A stretch of DNA of 38,049 bases from a virus, in the IMG/VR virus record IMGVR_UViG_3300020201_000010; one strand, written 5' to 3'. Positions 1,219-21,121 of this stretch are shown here, in pieces. Position 1 is the first letter of the stretch, and every line of letters begins with the position of its first letter. The position numbers and the translations under genes were made by a program. The notes beneath the pieces were generated by a model, which was given only the letters and a program-made list of their open reading frames with translations, ran no database searches and was not told the origin of the DNA.

Positions 1219-3672
1219 ATGCCTAATATCCCCGGTAATCCTATTCTACCTGGTACGTACAGTGAAATCCAAACACTTACTTCCGGAGTTTCACTTCCCG
1301 GTAGTACTCGTTTGGCAGTTCTGCTCGGCGAAGGAGCCCGAGTCGAAACGCTTATTGCTTCCGCCAATGGCTTCGGTAATGACGGTTTAAATTCCACATT
1401 TACATCTAATAATGGAGCAGATGGTCGCCATTTTAGACTTTCAAATGCACCAATTATTTCAAATAGAACAACTCTATTTCGTAATGGTATACCCCTTGTT
1501 GGTACACAAGGCACTAATAACAGTACAGCTTTCGCTACCAACTTTGATTACCGTCTACAAATTTCCAACGGGTCAATTGAACTTCAGGCAGCTTCTCTCG
1601 TTGATCAGGGAGGATCTTACTACCTTACCGGTGCATTAAACTCAGGTAACGGAGTTATTAATGATCTTACTTTAACCGATGCAAATGCTCCAACTGAAAC
1701 TTGGACTCTGCGCTGTGTCTCAGCCCGTAGAGATGGTTATGGTAATGCAATAGATGGTTATTCAAAATTTACAGCCCAAGGATCCGTTTCGGGTAATGTT
1801 CTTGATGGTTATGGCAACGTTATTATTTGGCAATCAAATGAAATTGTTAGAACAAACGGCATTTTATCATTTTCAATTGAAGATGGCTCAACGGTGTTTG
1901 TTGAGGGTGACCGATTTACTGTGCTGGTTGCAGGTGGTGCACTAACAACAGGAGAATCATTAGTTGCCACTTATATAGCTGTTACCGATATTAATTCACC
2001 AACACTTTTTACAAACATTAATGACCTTGTATCAAAACATGGATCACCAAGCTTATCAAATACATTATCATTGGGCGCACAGCTCGCGTTTGCAAATCAA
2101 CCTCCTGGTATTTATGCTCAGCAATGTGCACCTCCATTACCACGTAGACTTTCCTATGTGCTAGATGAATCATCAACCGGTGAAACTAATCTTGAAGATT
2201 TAGAATTTACACTGCCTCTAAATGTAACACCTGATTTTGATAGTCAAATTAATTTCTTTGTAACAGATCCTATTACAGGAGTTGAAACACAACTTTTACC
2301 AAATAAAGTTGCGTTTTATGACCCAACCATAACAGCTAATCCAAACTCATTCGTATTTGGATCCGGTTATACATATTCCTATACAGTAATTCTAACTGAT
2401 TCAATTCAAAAAGAAGGAACTGATGGTGTATTAACAATTGTTAACGGAACTCATGCTAAATTAAGTTCAGCATCTGTAACGTTTGACATTTCTGATTTAA
2501 GCGCAACAAGAAGTATTAAAATATTTGATGCCAACAACGCTCAAAATAATGGTACATTTTTAATCACAGCAGTTGCAGATGGCATCGTGACCATTACAAG
2601 AGCTGGAGGTTTCGTAGCTGAGACTAGCTTGAGTTTCCAGGATATTGATTCGTCAACAGAAAGCTCAATAGTGTTATTTACTGATGATTTAGCTCTAGCA
2701 GCTGGTCAATCATTACGATGCACACTTGTTGATGTAAAAGATGCTGATTTCTTTGACCCAGGTTGGATTGCAGCCTATGAAGAACTTGAAAAAATTAATA
2801 TTGACATTGTTGTTCCGCTGCCTAATCAGTTAATGTCTCAAGTCTTTGCAAATGGTAAACAACATGTATTAGCAATGAGTAATATTAAGAACCGTAAAGA
2901 GAGGGTATTATTTATTGGTGCAATTCAAGGATTAACGCCTGCAAATGTTATTGGAACTCAACTCGCTGCAGTAGAAGATATTGGCGTATTAGAAGGCATT
3001 CAAGGAGATGATACTGACGAAGTGTTAGCAGGGTCAATTGAAGATTTAACTGACTATGGCGTTCAAAATTCTTATGGTGACACATTTAGAGTTGTTTATT
3101 TCTACCCTGATGAGATTGTAGTAAATATCGGAGCTGACAGAACATTAGTAAGTGGTTATTACATTTCCGCTGCTGCTGCTGGTTTTCTTTCTGGGATTCC
3201 AAATGTTGCCGTTCCTTTGACTAACAAAACATTATCTGGTTTTGCTATTCTTCGAGATAAGCTTTACCGTCCAATAACACTAGAACAACTAGTTAGTGCA
3301 GGAATAACAGTATTACAGCCAGCTGTTGGTGGCGGACGAATTATTAAAGGACAGACTACAACCAACAGTGGATTTGTTGAGGAACAAGAGATTTCAATAA
3401 TATTTATTCGAGATCGTGTTGCAAAAGCAATGAGGGCAGGATTTCAAGGTTTTATTGGTCAAGCTGATGCCAAGACGGTTCAGGGAGCTATGGTGTCAAG
3501 AGCTGTTGGCTTACTAAATGGCTTTATTGGTCAAGGTTTAATTTCAGCATATAAGGGTTTGAAAGTTTTCAGAGACACTGTTGATCCAACGCAATGGAAT
3601 ATCAGTGTAAGTGTACAGCCTATATATCCAATAAACTATGTGTTCGTTAAAGTATCAATTGGATTGATTTAA
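1219..3672 (+). CDS. Contractile tail sheath protein (817 aa) with inserted outer beta-domains
   Basis: AAGGA RBS; N-terminal PGTYSE motif; C-terminal sheath signature (AAAAG...PLTNK...LVSAGITVL...GQTT...EISIIFIRD...FIG...V.VQPIYPINYV.V). Confidence 0.92.
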   Translation: MPNIPGNPILPGTYSEIQTLTSGVSLPGSTRLAVLLGEGARVETLIASANGFGNDGLNSTFTSNNGADGRHFRLSNAPIISNRTTLFRNGIPLVGTQGTNNSTAFATNFDYRLQISNGSIELQAASLVDQGGSYYLTGALNSGNGVINDLTLTDANAPTETWTLRCVSARRDGYGNAIDGYSKFTAQGSVSGNVLDGYGNVIIWQSNEIVRTNGILSFSIEDGSTVFVEGDRFTVLVAGGALTTGESLVATYIAVTDINSPTLFTNINDLVSKHGSPSLSNTLSLGAQLAFANQPPGIYAQQCAPPLPRRLSYVLDESSTGETNLEDLEFTLPLNVTPDFDSQINFFVTDPITGVETQLLPNKVAFYDPTITANPNSFVFGSGYTYSYTVILTDSIQKEGTDGVLTIVNGTHAKLSSASVTFDISDLSATRSIKIFDANNAQNNGTFLITAVADGIVTITRAGGFVAETSLSFQDIDSSTESSIVLFTDDLALAAGQSLRCTLVDVKDADFFDPGWIAAYEELEKINIDIVVPLPNQLMSQVFANGKQHVLAMSNIKNRKERVLFIGAIQGLTPANVIGTQLAAVEDIGVLEGIQGDDTDEVLAGSIEDLTDYGVQNSYGDTFRVVYFYPDEIVVNIGADRTLVSGYYISAAAAGFLSGIPNVAVPLTNKTLSGFAILRDKLYRPITLEQLVSAGITVLQPAVGGGRIIKGQTTTNSGFVEEQEISIIFIRDRVAKAMRAGFQGFIGQADAKTVQGAMVSRAVGLLNGFIGQGLISAYKGLKVFRDTVDPTQWNISVSVQPIYPINYVFVKVSIGLI

Positions 3673-3713
3673 TAATTAGTTTAGATATACTTATATAAAT
3701 ATTAGTAAAGATT

Positions 3714-3747
3714 AAACCGATCATTTTCTTTTGAACTTGATCGGTTT
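3714..3747 (+). terminator. Inverted repeat / putative intrinsic terminator after sheath gene
   Basis: AAACCGATCA (3714-3723) and TGATCGGTTT (3738-3747) form a perfect 10-bp stem with a 14-nt loop, followed by TGTGTT. Confidence 0.5.
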
Positions 3748-3760
3748 TGTGTTATATAGT
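3731..3760 (+). promoter_or_regulatory. Possible sigma70-like promoter for HNH paralog 2 (leaderless)
   Basis: TTGAAC-N16-TATATA (or N18-TATAGT) with TGn extension, just before ATG 3765; same TGTTATA-N8-ATG spacing as the promoter at 6453-6480. Confidence 0.35.
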
Positions 3761-3764
3761 ATAT

Positions 3765-4910
3765 ATGCCTGCTAAAATTATAATACCTGAAGAAATATTA
3801 GAACAAGCATTTAAATTATATAAAAATAATATTAGTTGTAAGAACGTAGCCAAACAACTTAAGATATCAAGTACAGCTTTAGCCAGGGTTTTACGAGATA
3901 ATAATTTATTATCTATTAGACCAAAAAATGGCCCGAACGCTCCAAGATTAACAGATAAAAATTATGAAGATATAAGAAAACTGCATAGAGATGGTTTAGG
4001 CATTAAGAAAATAGCAAAAAAATTAAAATTTAATTATGGTCAGATTAAAAAAGCATATTTAGATATGGGTTTGCTTAAACAAATTTACACATATCCGGAA
4101 AAAGAAAGAAATAAAAATAAAAAATGTAAAATTTGTTTTTTTACAAAAGATATTGAAAGTTTTTGTGCTGGTATTCGTGAAGGGAAAACTAGGCAGGTTA
4201 AAGCTTACTATAATACTTGTCAGGAGTGTTTGATAATATTTGGTAAGTTATTTTCTCGTGCATGTTATTATGATAATGCCACGTTAAAATTAATATATTA
4301 TAAAAAAGATTTATATGGAGCTTACTTATATTATCAAGATTATAAATTATTTTTAGATTATATAAAAATAGCTTATAATGATTTTAACGATCCTTATAAA
4401 ACATCTGCTAGATTAGTTATTAAAAGTAAAAATACAAATGTTCAACAGCGTAAAAGGCGCGGAGAAAATGATAGAGATTATATTAGAGCAAAAACAATGA
4501 GATATTTAAAAGAATGTATATTTAAAGATTCTCCTAGAAAAAAAGTTGATAATTTTTTAAAGGATCATCTTGGTTATAGCTCAAAAGAATTTAAAAAACA
4601 TATATTTTCATTAAAAGAAGATTGGATGATAATCGAAAAGTCTGGATATGGAGCATATAGATTATCATCATGGGATGATAATGATTCATCAACATGGGTA
4701 TGGCAAATAGATCATATTAACCCTGTTGCTAATTATAAATATAATTCTGTAGAGGATCTGCAATACAAAGAGTGTTGGAGTTTGGAAAATTTACGCCCAT
4801 TAAATGCAAAGATAAATTGCCTAGATGGAACAAGAGGCATAAGGCATAATAACAGAATCATTCGTGGTCAAGAAGCGAAAAACTTAAAAAATATTATCAC
4901 TTCACAATAA
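3765..4910 (+). CDS. HNH(N)-family endonuclease, paralog 2, with N-terminal HTH repeats and CxxC zinc ribbon
   Basis: Likely start ATG 3765 (MPAKIII) rather than TTG 3747; two HTH-like segments (CKNVAKQLKISSTALARVL; IKKIAKKLKFNYGQIKK); CKIC...CQEC; WQIDHINP...CWSLENLRP...N. Confidence 0.8.
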   Translation: MPAKIIIPEEILEQAFKLYKNNISCKNVAKQLKISSTALARVLRDNNLLSIRPKNGPNAPRLTDKNYEDIRKLHRDGLGIKKIAKKLKFNYGQIKKAYLDMGLLKQIYTYPEKERNKNKKCKICFFTKDIESFCAGIREGKTRQVKAYYNTCQECLIIFGKLFSRACYYDNATLKLIYYKKDLYGAYLYYQDYKLFLDYIKIAYNDFNDPYKTSARLVIKSKNTNVQQRKRRGENDRDYIRAKTMRYLKECIFKDSPRKKVDNFLKDHLGYSSKEFKKHIFSLKEDWMIIEKSGYGAYRLSSWDDNDSSTWVWQIDHINPVANYKYNSVEDLQYKECWSLENLRPLNAKINCLDGTRGIRHNNRIIRGQEAKNLKNIITSQ

Positions 4911-4954
4911 CTTTAATTATTTTCACTAAAATATAATTTGATACTGAGTATTAT

Positions 4955-5377
4955 TTAATCTATAATATCTTCTATCATTAAATCCATCAAAGCTTTATTC
5001 ATACCTGGAATTAATTTACATACTTCCAATATTTTTGTGTTTTTCTCCTGAGTAAGGCTAAAACTTTGATGGTTTTTCATATTTGTTAGCACGAAATTAA
5101 TTAAATATTGTTTATCTAGTTTATAGATGCGTTTAATTATTTTTTCGGTATCTGATTTAAAAAAACTTAAGCAAAGAAACATGTCACAAACATTCTTGGA
5201 TTTTAACAGTTGATTTTCAAGTTCTTCGGAATAACCAAAATGTAAAGCTTGAGAGTAATAACTTTTTGAGTCTAGTTTTTTAAGTATAGATAAAATAATA
5301 GGTTTTTCTTTTTCTGAAATAAATAAAGAATTATTTAATTTTGAAAGAAAAAATTTTTTGAGATTAATAATATTCAT
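4955..5377 (-). CDS. Small hypothetical protein (140 aa) ending in shared C-terminal motif ...LMIEDIID
   Basis: Last gene of a tightly packed five-gene antisense cassette; no family recognised. Confidence 0.75.
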   Translation of the reverse strand: MNIINLKKFFLSKLNNSLFISEKEKPIILSILKKLDSKSYYSQALHFGYSEELENQLLKSKNVCDMFLCLSFFKSDTEKIIKRIYKLDKQYLINFVLTNMKNHQSFSLTQEKNTKILEVCKLIPGMNKALMDLMIEDIID

Positions 5378-5386
5378 ATAACTAAT

Positions 5387-5638
5387 TTATTCTATAATTT
5401 TTTTAATTAAGTGATTATTGATTTTCTGTTGAATGAGTGGAAGAGAAAAATAATTCGTAGTGGGGCAAGCTCTATTTTCTTTATTATGAACAGGTTTTAA
5501 ATACCCTTTAGATATAAGATTTATACAAGTAACACTATGCTGATCTTTAATATGAGGATAGTAAGTTATCCATCTATGTTTATTATTAATATCAAAAAGA
5601 TAATTTAAGATAAAAAGTTCTTGTTCTGTAAAGTTCAT
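5387..5638 (-). CDS. Small hypothetical protein (83 aa), possible winged-helix; ends ...HLIKKIIE
   Basis: N-terminus MNFTEQELFIL and internal NLISKGYLK resemble the neighbours at 5893 and 6141. Confidence 0.75.
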   Translation of the reverse strand: MNFTEQELFILNYLFDINNKHRWITYYPHIKDQHSVTCINLISKGYLKPVHNKENRACPTTNYFSLPLIQQKINNHLIKKIIE

Positions 5639-5680
5639 TCTATCATATCATTTGTGTAGATGCAAGTTAAATATAACTTT

Positions 5681-5896
5681 TTACTTTATAATGTTTGCTA
5701 TTAAAATTTCATCATGACTAAAAACTTTTGAAACATTATATTCATGATCTCCAATTTTTAAATATAAATATTCTTCAGCTTTTTTTCTAGATGTAAAACT
5801 AATACCATCTGATATATTTACACTATCTGCTAAATGACGTTCTTTAGGCCAAAATCTTATCATATCCTTGGAGTAAGAGCCAATATAATATTTCAT
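5681..5896 (-). CDS. Small hypothetical protein (71 aa); ends ...ILIANIIK
   Basis: ATGA overlap with the upstream gene; contains F.SRKKAEEYL, a motif type common in small phage proteins. Confidence 0.75.
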   Translation of the reverse strand: MKYYIGSYSKDMIRFWPKERHLADSVNISDGISFTSRKKAEEYLYLKIGDHEYNVSKVFSHDEILIANIIK

Positions 5897-6141
5897 TCTA
5901 TAATATCCTTAATTAATTTTTCATTTTTCCACTTCTCAATTAATAGTTCGGGAGGATTTTTCATTAAAGATACTTTGTAGCACTTATTTGCATATATTTT
6001 TTGATCAATTTTAACATATTTTAATTTTTCAAGATCGATATATGTTTTTATTAAATATTTATCGTGTTTTTCAATATAAAGCCATTTATTTATACAATAC
6101 CAAATAGCTTGTAATGCATGTTCTTGATTATAAGTAAACAT
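5893..6141 (-). CDS. Small hypothetical protein (82 aa), possible winged-helix; ends ...KLIKDIIE
   Basis: TAATG overlap with the upstream gene; MFTYNQEHALQ...DLEKLKYVKI. Confidence 0.75.
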   Translation of the reverse strand: MFTYNQEHALQAIWYCINKWLYIEKHDKYLIKTYIDLEKLKYVKIDQKIYANKCYKVSLMKNPPELLIEKWKNEKLIKDIIE

Positions 6142-6446
6142 TATTGAATTATATTCATAATTAATATTTCAGAATCAAATTTATTTTTTAATTCTTCAGA
6201 TAAAGTTAACTCAAACAATATATCATACATTTTTATACTTGATATTTTAATTAAACCAAGATTTTCAAAATCTGTAAATATAGCTAAATCTGTATACTTA
6301 GAACATAATAAATTGCCATCATTATAATACTCTACTGTTTTAAAATCAGTGTCATAATTTTGATAAGGAGATGTTTCAGCAACTGCATTTACAGTACAAA
6401 GTTCATACCATGTTCTTAATTGTTCTTCTTGGTCAGGAGTTAACAT
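6141..6446 (-). CDS. Small hypothetical protein (101 aa), possible winged-helix; ends ...ILIMNIIQ
   Basis: First gene of the antisense cassette; MLTPDQEEQLR...DFENLGLIKI. Confidence 0.78.
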   Translation of the reverse strand: MLTPDQEEQLRTWYELCTVNAVAETSPYQNYDTDFKTVEYYNDGNLLCSKYTDLAIFTDFENLGLIKISSIKMYDILFELTLSEELKNKFDSEILIMNIIQ

Positions 6447-6452
6447 ATTTTC

Positions 6453-6480
6453 ATTATAACATATAGTGGCGTAATTGCAA
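6453..6480 (-). promoter_or_regulatory. sigma70-type promoter with extended -10 driving the antisense cassette (predicted leaderless mRNA)
   Basis: Minus strand reads TTGCAA-N16-TATAAT with TG one base before the -10; ATG at 6446 lies 6 nt after the -10; no SD. Confidence 0.7.
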
Positions 6481-6629
6481 TGGTAAAAACGTGACTATGA
6501 TACTAATATTTTATTTTATATATTCTTGCAGAACCAGATTTCGATAAAGTTTGAATTTATTATGTTTAATATTATTTAAATTTACAACTTCAAATAATTT
6601 TAAACAGGCTCATAATAGAAAGGTTTAGT

Positions 6630-8195
6630 ATGAAGTTCAAAGAATTAAACAATGAACAAAAAGATGAAATTAAAAGATTACATTCTGAAAATTTAACAGC
6701 TAATGAAATAGGAAAGCGTTTAGGCGTCACTTGCACCAGTATGATCGGTTTTATTAATAAGCTTAATTTAATTCCTAATCGAATAAAAAAAGCATATCCG
6801 GATCAGGAATTTAAAAATTTAATTATTAAAGAGTATAATAAAGGTAAGTTTGAGAGGAGAATAAGTACAGAGAATAATATAAATATTTCATTAGTAAGAA
6901 ATACAATTGATTACTATATTAAGCATCACGGTTTAATTAGAAATAAATTTGAGCCGCGACCACAAAATTTAACTCAAAGTGTAGTAAAAATGTATAAAGG
7001 TTCAGACCGCCCATCTATTGGCAGTATAGCAAAGTTCTTTAATCGTGATAAGAAAACTATAAGAAAATGTTTACAAGAAGCCGGATTAAAAATTACATGT
7101 ATCAGAAAAAATAAAAAAAACGACTTTTTATATGATATTGGTTTAAGAAAGTGTAAAACTTGTTCATCCATCAAGAAAACAAACTGTTTCCCAGGCCGAA
7201 AGATAGAGTGTTTAAAGTGCGTTAGCCTTTGGGGTCGTTTATATAATATATATAAAAGCACAAATTATCTTAAAGTTTTTGATCTAATTATGAATAAGGA
7301 TTTGAAAAACGGTATAGAATATTATAAAAAATATGAGCTTGATATTAGTGAAAAAAAGAAAATAGAAAAAAAATTATATGAATCAACTTTAAAATATAAA
7401 TGTGCAAAATTTTATCCAATTATTAATGAAAAAAGAGAATGTGCCACATGTCATTTTGTTAAAGATAAGATATGTTTTATATCAGGGCCTAATAAATCTA
7501 CAGATAGAATATGTACTATGTGTCAAGATCTTTTTGCAAAAATAAAAAATTATTCAAATAACAAACTTGATCTTAGTAAAAATAATACTGAATTATTATT
7601 GGATATTTATAATAATAAAAAATGGCATGATGCTAAAAAATATTGTGAATGGAGGTCTGGTTATAAAAAAGAAATTACTCTGTCTAAAGAACCATCAAGA
7701 ATTATTAGAAAATCGGTTTCTTGTGCAATAGAACAATATTTTTCTAATAAGAATTTAAGCAAAGGGTCATCTTGCTTTGAAAAACTGCCATTTACAGTAA
7801 AAGAGTTGAGAGATCATTTCGAATCTCTCTTTGAACCGTGGATGAATTGGAACAATCACGGTTCTTATAGTAAAGCAACCTGGGATGATAACGATAAATC
7901 AACCTGGTTATGGCAAACTGATCATTTTACCTGCCACTCCATGTACGAATACTCAACTATGAATGATGAACATTTTAAAGCATGCTGGGCTCTTAGTAAT
8001 CTTCGACCTTATTCTGCGAAACAAAATGTTATCGATGGTTACAGTCGAATCAGGCAAAATCATATTTTGTTCAATACATATATTAATGAATGGAGTAAAA
8101 ATAAAAATATAATATTAAAACAAGAATTAAATATAAATTACAATTTTGAAAATAGAAATCCGGTTATAATAGGTAATATTATTGTATCTCTTTAG
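6630..8195 (+). CDS. HNH(N)-family endonuclease, paralog 3 (521 aa), with HTH repeats and two zinc-ribbon-like CxxC..CxxC units
   Basis: TANEIGKRLGV and IGSIAKFFNRDKKTIRKCL HTH-like segments; CKTC..CLKC and CATC..CTMC; HFESLFEPWMNWNN...WQTDH...CWALSNLRP...N. Confidence 0.82.
   Translation: MKFKELNNEQKDEIKRLHSENLTANEIGKRLGVTCTSMIGFINKLNLIPNRIKKAYPDQEFKNLIIKEYNKGKFERRISTENNINISLVRNTIDYYIKHHGLIRNKFEPRPQNLTQSVVKMYKGSDRPSIGSIAKFFNRDKKTIRKCLQEAGLKITCIRKNKKNDFLYDIGLRKCKTCSSIKKTNCFPGRKIECLKCVSLWGRLYNIYKSTNYLKVFDLIMNKDLKNGIEYYKKYELDISEKKKIEKKLYESTLKYKCAKFYPIINEKRECATCHFVKDKICFISGPNKSTDRICTMCQDLFAKIKNYSNNKLDLSKNNTELLLDIYNNKKWHDAKKYCEWRSGYKKEITLSKEPSRIIRKSVSCAIEQYFSNKNLSKGSSCFEKLPFTVKELRDHFESLFEPWMNWNNHGSYSKATWDDNDKSTWLWQTDHFTCHSMYEYSTMNDEHFKACWALSNLRPYSAKQNVIDGYSRIRQNHILFNTYINEWSKNKNIILKQELNINYNFENRNPVIIGNIIVSL
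8174..8187 (+). promoter_or_regulatory. Candidate phage late-promoter motif TAATATTATTGTAT upstream of tube
   Basis: Near-identical to the motif at 1161-1174 upstream of sheath; lies inside the last codons of the HNH gene. Confidence 0.3.
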
Positions 8196-8211
8196 AAAGA
8201 ACTATATTTTA

Positions 8212-8239
8212 ATTATGTTTTTGATTATGTTTTTGATTA
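8212..8239 (+). repeat. 12-bp tandem direct repeat (ATTATGTTTTTG)x2 + ATTA
   Basis: Read directly, immediately upstream of the tube RBS (AAAGGA). Confidence 0.85.
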
Positions 8240-8251
8240 AAAAGGATAAAT

Positions 8252-8908
8252 ATGCCAGTTAGGCTTAATAACATTGGTGATACACCCATTAATAACTTTT
8301 CTAATGCCAGTGGTGGCGAGGGTAAGTCAGGGACTGCAACACATCTATCTACAAATATCGCGATTCTTATTGAGGGTGTAGCCGTTGGAGCTGTCCAGAA
8401 ACTTTCAATTAATGAATCACGTTCAATTAAGATGGTTAATGAGGTTGGAACAGATGGTAGTATTGACTCAGCACCAACAGCATCTACTGAAATTAGTGGT
8501 GATTGTTCCAGAATACGTTTTAATAGACAAAGAATTGCCGAAGCGTTTCTTAGAGGGTATGTTCACGTAAGCGCTCAAAGAGTTCCGTTTGATATAGTAA
8601 TTATGGATAATTTTCAAGGGTCAGATGATAGTAATATTGTTATTACAACACTTCGAAATGTTTGGATTAAATCAATTAGCTATTCTTACGAATCTGAGTC
8701 ATTTATAATTTCAGAAAATATGTCATTTGTTTGTGAATCAATTGAATCTTATCGTGGCGATGGTGAATCGAGCGTTGTAGGTAATCCAAATAATCGTGGT
8801 ATTCCAATTGCTGTCAATCCTTTTGAGCAACAGGCTGATAGAGGGACTTATCGCGGAGCCCTTGACGCAGCAGGCCTCATAAATGCATTTGACGGCAATA
8901 CATTATAA
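8252..8908 (+). CDS. Tail tube protein (218 aa)
   Basis: AAGGA RBS; tube-like pattern I.I.G..VG.VQ.LSI.E.R....V.E.G...PFDI.I.D...TTL.NVWI.S.S.SY.....II.E...F..E; position between sheath and chaperone/TMP. Confidence 0.85.
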   Translation: MPVRLNNIGDTPINNFSNASGGEGKSGTATHLSTNIAILIEGVAVGAVQKLSINESRSIKMVNEVGTDGSIDSAPTASTEISGDCSRIRFNRQRIAEAFLRGYVHVSAQRVPFDIVIMDNFQGSDDSNIVITTLRNVWIKSISYSYESESFIISENMSFVCESIESYRGDGESSVVGNPNNRGIPIAVNPFEQQADRGTYRGALDAAGLINAFDGNTL

Positions 8909-20284: not shown

Positions 20285-21121
20285 ATGTGGAATCATGTAA
20301 ATAAATTAACAGAAAAATGCTGTGAAGTTTGTGGTTCTTTATATGATGGAACTATAAATAGTAAACGCTGTTCAGAATTTTGTAAAAAACAATGGTTGCA
20401 AGATTATTATAAAAATAAAAAACCAAATAATTTAAATAATTTTTCTATACCAAGAGTTTGCATCATTTGTAATAAACAATATTTAATAAATGGCAATAAA
20501 CAAAAAACATGTTCAAATAATTGTTATAACCAAAACGTCAGGGCTGAAGAAAGAAAAAAATATCATAAAAATAGAGAATCTATCACTTCTAAAAAAAGAG
20601 AACAGGAAAAATTAAGAAATATTAAAAAATATCCAAATTTTATTTCACAAATAAGATTACCTTTATTAAAAGATGAAGATAAAGAGTTTTTTAAACCGCT
20701 TGATTTAATATTAACGGATGAATTAAAAACAAAAGAAAAAAACAAACGTAGAAAACACAGAAGAGACAATGATCTTTCTTATAAGTTAAAAAATAATATT
20801 TCAAGATCTATGAGATCTTATTTAATTAATAATAGTAATGGATCGAAATTACATTTTCTAACTTATACAATTAATGATTTAAAAAATCATTTAGAATATC
20901 AATTTGAATCTTGGATGACATGGGATAATTGGGGCATCTATAAAAACGATGGCATACGTAAGTGGCATGTAGATCATATTATACCACAAAGTATTTTTAA
21001 TTTTATTAACGATGATAACTCAATGAATTTAAGAGAAATTGAAGCATGCTGGGCATTAAATAATTTAAGACCATTATGTGCGCTTGAAAATATTAAAAAA
21101 GGTAATAAAAATGCCATGTAA
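20285..21121 (+). CDS. HNH(N)-family endonuclease, paralog 4 (278 aa), with two CxxC...CSxxC zinc-finger repeats
   Basis: CEVC...CSEFC and CIIC...CSNNC; HLEYQFESWMTWDNWG...WHVDHIIP...CWALNNLRPL...EN.KKGN. Confidence 0.85.
   Translation: MWNHVNKLTEKCCEVCGSLYDGTINSKRCSEFCKKQWLQDYYKNKKPNNLNNFSIPRVCIICNKQYLINGNKQKTCSNNCYNQNVRAEERKKYHKNRESITSKKREQEKLRNIKKYPNFISQIRLPLLKDEDKEFFKPLDLILTDELKTKEKNKRRKHRRDNDLSYKLKNNISRSMRSYLINNSNGSKLHFLTYTINDLKNHLEYQFESWMTWDNWGIYKNDGIRKWHVDHIIPQSIFNFINDDNSMNLREIEACWALNNLRPLCALENIKKGNKNAM

Follow-up and report, generated by a model that had tools for sequence, protein, structure and literature searches.

A portable C-terminal peptide element marks a large class of small, fast-evolving phage proteins and may act as a docking helix

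IMG/VR virus record IMGVR_UViG_3300020201_000010 comprises 38,049 nt, and this whole stretch, referred to here as the window, carries a cassette of five consecutive genes (4955-6446) on its minus strand, located between a tail sheath gene and a tube-like gene (Table 1). The five open reading frames (ORFs) encode small proteins of 71 to 140 amino acids (aa), and all of them end in the same short C-terminal tag: LMIEDIID in the 140-aa protein, HLIKKIIE in the 83-aa protein, ILIANIIK in the 71-aa protein, KLIKDIIE in the 82-aa protein and ILIMNIIQ in the 101-aa protein, with exactly one residue past the Ile-Ile pair in every case. The 82-aa gene overlaps both of its neighbours, its start with the stop of the gene upstream (TAATG) and its stop with the start of the following gene (ATGA).

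Table 1. Locations of the genes and other features discussed in the text (coordinates refer to the window unless a relative, G1, G6, G7 or G9, is named)
Feature	Location	Strand	Description
Tail sheath gene	1219-3672		PHROG tail sheath; precedes the low-GC island
Low-GC island	3700-8200 (approx.)	.	24-28% GC, versus 33-39% in the flanks
Flanking ORF	3747-4910	+	387 aa; N-terminal helix-turn-helix (HTH) domains, HNH-like C-terminal motif W-Q-I-D-H...N-L-R-P...N
Fifth cassette gene	4955-5377	-	140 aa; C-terminus ...ALMDLMIEDIID; last codons 4958-4978
Fourth cassette gene	5387-5638	-	83 aa; C-terminus ...NNHLIKKIIE; last codons 5390-5410
Third cassette gene	5681-5896	-	71 aa; C-terminus ...SHDEILIANIIK; last codons 5684-5704
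Second cassette gene	5893-6141	-	82 aa; C-terminus ...NEKLIKDIIE; last codons 5896-5916
First cassette gene	6141-6446	-	101 aa; C-terminus ...SEILIMNIIQ; last seven codons 6144-6164
Sigma-70-like promoter candidate	6453-6480	-	TTGCAA-16-TATAAT, TG before the -10 hexamer; 10/12 consensus matches
Flanking ORF	6630-8195	+	521 aa; paralogue of 3747-4910, E = 2e-26
Tube-like gene	8252-8908		Follows the low-GC island
ClpP gene, G7	L174:353-1009		
ClpP gene, G6	410663-411280		
ClpP gene, G9	73688-74242		
ClpP genes, G1	217515-218653		Two tandem copies
Tailed gene, G1 (example)	L031:8269-8838		
Tailed gene, G1 (example)	L030:15311-15757		

In a six-frame translation of the window, a strict regular expression for the tag occurs six times, and the five occurrences followed by a stop codon are the five ORFs. 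With a looser expression, the tag is C-terminal in 5 of the 24 called genes against 0.084 expected from its internal frequency (roughly P = 3e-8, Poisson), and none of the structural proteins of the window ends in it. Numbering residues back from the last one (-1), Ile at -3 is encoded by ATT in four genes and ATA in one, Ile at -2 by ATA in four and ATT in one, and the stops are TAA (four genes) and TGA (one gene). The sixth strict match (LIKNIIK...), on the minus strand at 8220-8240, is not followed by a stop and falls outside any gene, in the 56 nt that separate the tube gene from the second HNH-like ORF; it may be a chance occurrence or what is left of a tagged gene.

Stripped of the tag, all five bodies are BLASTP singletons; the best pair, the 82-aa and 101-aa proteins, aligns with a non-significant E = 0.008 over 49 residues that include the tag. 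None of the five proteins has a match above cut-off in Pfam or PHROGs, and none is matched by any of the family hidden Markov models (HMMs) that were built from relatives. A Rad10 identity for one window protein was rejected, as the match (18 bits) was below the Pfam cut-off. Among 5.8 billion sequences searched, the sole relative of the 101-aa protein was a 99% identical copy, and the 140-aa protein had one 87% identical homologue, ending in ...LMIEDIIE, and otherwise near-identical copies only. The ESM Atlas model of the 140-aa protein is helical and of low confidence; its nearest structures, which include DUF4116 and tetratricopeptide repeat (TPR) proteins, have template modelling (TM) scores of 0.43-0.50, and the body is probably an all-helical repeat. 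The five window proteins are orphans among the tag-bearing bodies described below.

Tag-bearing relatives were found with a back-translated DNA pattern, which gave four IMG/VR contigs with several matches each; these were fetched whole and their genes were called mechanically. G7 (459 kb) and G6 (435 kb) are complete relatives, and G8 and G9 have 85 and 234 called genes, respectively. The records IMGVR_UViG_3300027740_000003 and 3300028920_000022 are complete relatives. In three of the four contigs the sheath is 62-66% identical to that of the window. The tag ends 89 of 810 genes in G7, compared with 1.8 expected from the internal rate, 94 of 756 in G6 (about 2 expected), 20 of 85 in G8 (0.2 expected) and 51 of 234 in G9 (0.6 expected). 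The II tag is not present in G1 and G3, the first sheath relatives to be checked. Full-text searches of the literature did not find a description of such a tag.

The original prediction, made from the window alone, had described five consecutive ORFs with a common tag at an identical distance from the stop, ATT-ATA in four and ATA-ATT in one, TAA or TGA stops, at least two bodies without other visible similarity and no structural protein ending in this way. ORF calls, the six-frame count and the body comparison bear out each of these statements. Composition and full-length paralogy had been named there as grounds for refutation; the counts in the window and in G7 lie far above what AT or Ile/Lys bias would give, and neither BLASTP nor HMM comparison detects the five as paralogues.

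The full element in the relatives is 12-13 residues long and C-terminal, with the consensus [ST]-x-x-E-h-h-I-[KR]-x-I-I-x (h, hydrophobic). It begins with a hydrophobic residue at -13 and an N-cap Ser or Thr at -12, and continues with Glu at -9, hydrophobic residues at -8 to -6, Lys or Arg at -5, Asp, Glu or Asn at -4, and Ile-Ile at -3/-2; the single residue that closes the tag is almost always E, K, Q, D, T or N. S/T-x-x-E flanked by hydrophobic residues is well known from the N-terminal ends of helices, as their capping box and hydrophobic staple, and AlphaFold2 (AF2) modelled the tag stretch as a helix in the two families that were folded. Occurrences of the extended motif are C-terminal rather than internal by 68 to 0 in G6 and by 55 to 1 in G7. 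The window proteins resemble this profile, with Glu or Asp at -9 in four of the five, Leu or Met followed by Ile at -7/-6, and Ile-Ile at -3/-2; the 71-aa protein also has an S-x-D-E helix-capping box, as in the relatives.

As an alternative to a peptide signal, a DNA-level cassette-exchange site had been put forward. The conserved 3′ end could in principle be such a recombination site, or an AU-rich element for starting translation of the next overlapping gene, given that the five tag-coding stretches in the window are similar in DNA, that the tag residues are ones with AT-rich codons and that many stops overlap the next start (ATGA). In G7, however, ATT, ATC and ATA occur at similar frequencies at the conserved Ile positions, Cys is encoded by TGT and TGC, Glu by GAA and GAG, and position -5 by six Lys/Arg codons (AAA, AAG, CGG, AGG, CGA and AGA). 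Since the conserved residues use all synonymous codons in the relatives, a DNA exchange site fails as the conserved object, and this alternative was rejected. The last codon usually ends in A before TGA, producing the ATGA overlap with the next start, which explains part of the E/K preference at -1 but not the helix. Moreover, an RNA signal gives no reason for the conservation of the Trp/Phe, Cys and Thr positions, and the tag is kept in the last genes of arrays and in genes before gaps, three of the five window genes being of that kind. A nucleic-acid signal of either type is close to negligible as an explanation; with the peptide conserved and the codons free, selection acts on the tag peptide.

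True carriers of the tag are 44-166 aa long in G7-G9, with repeat proteins of up to 439 aa in G6. After removal of the tag, 258 tagged proteins fell into 102 BLASTP clusters. About 140 of them belong to one zinc superfamily with an invariant His, a CxxC and a Cys at -11 that lies inside the tag; because this Cys lies there, the tag probably supplies the fourth metal ligand. The AF2 model of the zinc mini-protein has a predicted local distance difference test (pLDDT) score of 88, and no solved fold matched it clearly (best E = 0.59 in Foldseek; best Z = 3.2 in VIA). A profile of the family found 871 clusters at 50% identity among 1.84 billion representatives, and in 130 of the best 144 small matches the tag was in the same register. 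Ten matches were looked up, and all ten came from metagenomic or sequencing-run assemblies, labelled 'hypothetical protein' at most; a tblastn search of cultured phages, phage G among them, with one tagged zinc protein as the query gave zero matches. This H/CxxC/C mini-protein family is unnamed, uncatalogued and without a Pfam model.

The remaining 118 tagged proteins form 70 clusters, which include DUF4116, MORN-like and DUF6794 proteins (the last with one tagged protein) and many orphans. DUF4116 (PF13475) was found above cut-off in nine of the ten largest tagged proteins of G6, with E values from 1.5e-28 to 4.9e-7. A repeat family of G9 was modelled by AF2 entirely as beta-hairpins (pLDDT 94.8); Pfam gave no match to it, and the top 10 Foldseek rows were all MORN proteins, with probabilities of 0.84-1.00 (at least 0.98 in nine of the ten) and E values from 2.5e-3 to 1.5e-2. 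Wherever Pfam matched a tagged protein, only the body was covered and nothing on the constant tail. The tag is portable across unrelated bodies, namely a zinc mini-domain, an alpha-solenoid, a beta-hairpin repeat and about 70 orphan groups.

Tagged genes are clustered in arrays, 75 of 94 having a tagged neighbour compared with 22 expected, and their GC content is 3-10 points below that of the remaining genes in each genome. The complete relatives have none of them in the large central region where the tail genes lie. Short open frames with a perfect tag and without a usable start codon were seen at 85579-85632, 55326-55382 and 131408-131449 in G9 and at 116228-116386 and 150169-150366 in G6, and a search for tag-only mini-ORFs returned decayed fragments only. 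Such frames are probably decayed copies of tagged genes, and gene birth and death in the arrays would therefore be frequent.

A close variant of the cassette was available in L223, a Logan contig of 2090 nt (SRR15443080) from another sample, which aligns to window positions 3949-6240 with 95-97% DNA identity. The ratio of non-synonymous to synonymous substitution rates (dN/dS) between the two was about 1.0, 1.06 and 2.2 in three genes and undefined in the 71-aa gene, which has eight non-synonymous and no synonymous changes; apart from the 83-aa gene, most of the differences in the genes are non-synonymous. In total there are 37 amino-acid changes, all of which spare tag positions -9, -7, -6, -3 and -2; within the last 13 residues, changes occur only at -11, -8, -5, -4 and -1. 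The alignment with L223 lacks about 200 nt inside the 83-aa gene (window 5409-5612), whose frame in L223 closes after 12 codons and whose tag-coding 3′ end is kept. Since it is disrupted in L223, the 83-aa gene is dispensable. The cassette bodies change fast, with dN/dS of about 1 or more, and the core of the helix is fixed.

The variable positions of the tag (-8, -5, -4 and -1) were then compared for identity between tagged proteins. Identity was 0.41 for different bodies of the same genome and 0.26 for the same body in different genomes, with a baseline of 23%. The flavour of the tag (KD, RE, KN or FQ across lineages) tracks the genome and not the body, which fits a genome-specific shared reader. 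A more distant relative, G1 (IMGVR_UViG_3300035661_000001, 452 kb, loci L011-L033), whose sheath is 44-52% identical, lacks the II tag, and about 26 of its small proteins end instead in K-[LI]-K-x-L-L-x-F-x or L-x-L-K-x-F-[WL]. Without this tail they fall into 24 BLASTP clusters, and a strict regular expression for it gave 12 occurrences against 0.1 expected. The G1 tail has the look of a second C-terminal tag, specific to this lineage; it is basic, not acidic, and similar to membrane-targeting helices.

We therefore conclude firmly that the element is real, selected as a peptide, obligatorily C-terminal and portable, and that it marks a huge, fast-evolving and clustered class of small proteins. 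Its appearance is that of a docking label of a kind not yet described. The reading we favour, although we give it slightly less than an even chance, is that one shared partner reads the helix in trans as a docking handle. The five ORFs would then be members of a very large class of accessory proteins in one clade of uncultured huge myoviruses, each consisting of a variable body joined directly to a constant C-terminal helix. The Ile face of the helix and the nearby free C-terminus would plug into a hydrophobic groove of the partner, and this shared groove would bring many binder modules (zinc mini-domains, MORN-like proteins, DUF4116 repeats and orphans) to the same machine.

Several observations weigh against docking in trans. 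AF2 places the helix confidently and without a disordered linker in both families folded (block pLDDT 80 and 91-96), so a structural role, with the helix packing in cis, has to be considered. If the Cys at -11 is a zinc ligand, as is probable, the helix is rigidly joined to the body and may likewise pack in cis. Solved MORN proteins (MORN4/Myo3a and junctophilin entries) bind helices along their sheet, which also fits cis packing, and the genome-specific flavour may be in part a GC bias, with N/K in the 28% GC genomes and R/E in the 39.5% GC genome. The main rival is built on these points: the tag would be a self-capped amphipathic helix that stabilises its own small domain, shared through family descent or through swapping of 3′ ends in tandem arrays, with no common reader. 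That a single zinc superfamily accounts for 140 of the 258 tagged proteins agrees with it, as does the fact that all true carriers are either small or repeat proteins that could use a capping helix. However, bodies as different as an alpha-solenoid, a beta-hairpin repeat, a zinc mini-domain and the orphan groups carry the same 12-13 residues, the variable positions of the tag follow the genome rather than the body, and the motif is essentially never internal and always leaves one residue past II, which a purely structural helix need not do. We regard a helix acting only in cis as unlikely.

The search for a reader also weighs against docking. Among five relatives, no match was found to S41 (PF03572) or PDZ (PF13180) domains, to the 20S proteasome/HslV family (PF00227, for which the control matched 10 of 14 genomes), to encapsulin (PF04454, Linocin_M18) or to the microcompartment (BMC) shell (PF00936). 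T4-type prohead protease, Peptidase_S77 (PF03420), had no match in the five relatives, nor in the control genomes. A beta-clamp domain was not found in the relatives, T4 gp45-type clamps not being searched for, and neither was a ClpX-type unfoldase, AAA_2 or Clp ATPase. Seventy-three genes are common to G6 and G7 and absent from G1 and G3; these lineage-specific genes include ordinary accessory enzymes and no obvious hub, and a Pfam scan of the ten best conserved found, among others, PNK, radical SAM, Ku, RNA ligase, histidine phosphatase, amidase, CoaBC and Macro. The original prediction had read the tag as an interchangeable addressing signal for a hub, a packaging route or an AAA+ protease: the portable, protein-level, C-terminal element on small proteins stands, and the addressing was not borne out by this search.

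For docking in trans, the leading but weak and rather doubtful candidate partner is a Clp-type proteolytic system, made up of phage ClpP and a host unfoldase. Full-length ClpP, with scores of up to 204 bits, is encoded outside the structural module in all relatives examined (G7, G6, G9, G3 and G1). In G7 the ClpP gene has NADAR, DUF192, an FtsK-like ATPase and a radical SAM enzyme as neighbours. Two conserved and very divergent AAA+ ATPases of 370-470 aa with an S/T-P-R-x-W motif were observed at L172:10696-12036 and L173:6780-8084 of G7, with homologues in G6, G9, G3 and G1; they look MoxR-like, and pore-loop motifs are not present in their sequences.

The same ClpP bears on a narrower proposal, in which the tail is a degron or timer that marks the whole class for turnover by phage ClpP with host ClpX, ClpC or ClpA and so gives it a short programmed lifetime. 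The strictly C-terminal position of the motif and the host-type promoter candidate at the cassette are in keeping with this. Known C-terminal degrons of ClpX and ClpA have non-polar last residues, whereas the tag ends in E, K, Q or D; the charged end also counts against docking on a Clp partner. With no phage-encoded unfoldase found in the relatives and the conserved AAA+ genes being MoxR-like and without pore-loop motifs, we consider a degron improbable. The degron reading and the virion-loading reading discussed below are special cases of reading in trans, each with its own specific counter-evidence.

The cassette lies in an island of low GC between tail genes, flanked by two ORFs on the plus strand. 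ORF 3747-4910 matches Pfam HTH_7 (E = 1.5e-7) and is a putative free-standing homing endonuclease; the HNH assignment of the flanking ORFs was read from the motif, without Pfam confirmation. Both flanking ORFs end in 'NII', which was considered as a tag and rejected as a product of paralogy, because the residues near the end of 6630-8195 align to the interior of its paralogue. On the plus strand, between structural genes, the window has four ORFs of low GC that are paralogues of one another (111-1088, 3747-4910, 6630-8195 and 20285-21121) and have HTH domains and an HNH-like motif (W-Q-x-D-H...N-L-R-P...N); they probably represent free-standing homing endonucleases, at a site where insertion has recurred. 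In G7, G6 and G1 the sheath gene is next to the tube gene, and in G8 and G3 one HNH-like ORF separates them. Because the two genes are adjacent or split by a single such ORF in relatives, the cassette arrived together with, or within, an insertion of a homing endonuclease at a repeatedly used site. On this reading it is a copy of the tagged class that was carried into the tail-gene module within a homing-endonuclease island. A DNA search of the island against cultured phages gave zero matches.

The cassette probably has its own host-type promoter and might be expressed early. The promoter candidate, a match to the consensus and no more, stops 6 nt short of the first gene's ATG (6446), and sigma-70-like sites are no more frequent in the cassette region than in shuffled sequences. 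A transcript from this site would be leaderless or nearly so.

The position among tail genes speaks for virion loading, in which the helix would bind the procapsid interior or the scaffold, and the small proteins would enter the head and be injected along with the DNA; the tag would then correspond, at the C-terminus, to the T4 capsid targeting sequence or to the cargo peptides of encapsulins. The general logic of such a system agrees with a very large head, a capsid of HK97 type and a short peptide at the end of unrelated cargo proteins. The cassette, however, is on the opposite strand, in a mobile low-GC island with a host-type promoter candidate, and in the complete relatives tagged genes are missing from the structural region. 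There is no consistent protease-site motif before the helix, and -11 varies in G6. About 100 cargo species per phage would, to our knowledge, be unprecedented. Virion loading is thus highly doubtful.

Should reading in trans hold, a single short peptide would define the largest functional gene class of a huge-phage clade, about 12-22% of genes, nearly all of them now 'hypothetical'; the tag could then serve as bait for the hub, each body as bait for a host target, and the tag itself as a portable engineering tag. If it packs in cis, the finding shrinks to a large unnamed mini-protein family with a conserved capping helix (the 871 clusters) and is much less surprising. New here are the role of the Cys as a zinc ligand, the size of the zinc family, the comparison of genome with body, the G1 tag, and the homing-endonuclease context together with the fast evolution of the cassette.

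Comparison with known systems found likenesses to several. The tag does not have the non-polar LAA-COOH end of the ssrA/ClpX degron. Nor does it match the PIP-box or clamp tail (Q-x-x-[LIM]-x-x-[FY]-[FY] or QL[SD]LF): its E-x-x-I-x-x-I-I has similar spacing but lacks the aromatic pair. The HbYX tails of proteasome activators and the C-terminal tail of HslU share with it a hydrophobic-hydrophobic-X-COOH pattern at a fixed distance from the carboxyl end, and insert into a pocket of the protease ring. However, HbYX needs Tyr, whereas the tag has I-I-X with Tyr never dominant at -2, and the carriers here are about 100 small proteins and not one ATPase ring.

The cargo-loading peptides of encapsulins and the encapsulation peptides of microcompartments are likewise short amphipathic peptides, in many cases C-terminal, by which one shell protein recognises unrelated cargo, and the h-h-[KR]-x-h-h spacing may resemble that of some encapsulation peptides. 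Those peptides are on flexible linkers, whereas the helix here abuts the body, and the five relatives have no shell gene. The T4 capsid targeting sequence of IPI-III and Alt is similar in being a short portable peptide on unrelated small phage proteins of a hypervariable class thought to act on the host. It is N-terminal and removed by the prohead protease; the tag is always at the extreme C-terminus, with no cleavage motif detected.

Among published observations the nearest is the expansion of a zinc ribbon to about 35 copies in Bacillus phage G (Iyer et al. 2021, PMC7824862), a report that does not mention a shared C-terminal helix. Both cases are lineage-specific expansions of small zinc-binding proteins, and phage G is a huge myovirus distantly related by its sheath.

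Large, fast-evolving and clustered families are also formed by the poxvirus ankyrin-repeat proteins with PRANC/F-box-like ends, as well as by F-box and SOCS-box adaptors. The PRANC box is an F-box-like element of 40-50 residues that binds Skp1, whereas the tag is a single helix of 12-13 residues, and the virus here is one of bacteria, without a ubiquitin system. The architecture is nevertheless alike: in the poxvirus proteins a variable protein-binding repeat body is followed by a constant element at the extreme C-terminus that docks all of them on one machine. Docking of the tagged proteins would follow the logic of such viral adaptor families, a variable repeat domain joined to a constant C-terminal box. 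Taken further, the roughly 100 proteins could form a library of binders whose universal helix links each bound host target to one phage-controlled machine, for example proteolysis by the phage's own ClpP, with sister lineages using another helix matched to their own reader. We hold this extension to be quite unlikely; if true, it would be the bacterial-virus equivalent of the F-box/PRANC adaptors, or a natural 'targeted degradation' library.

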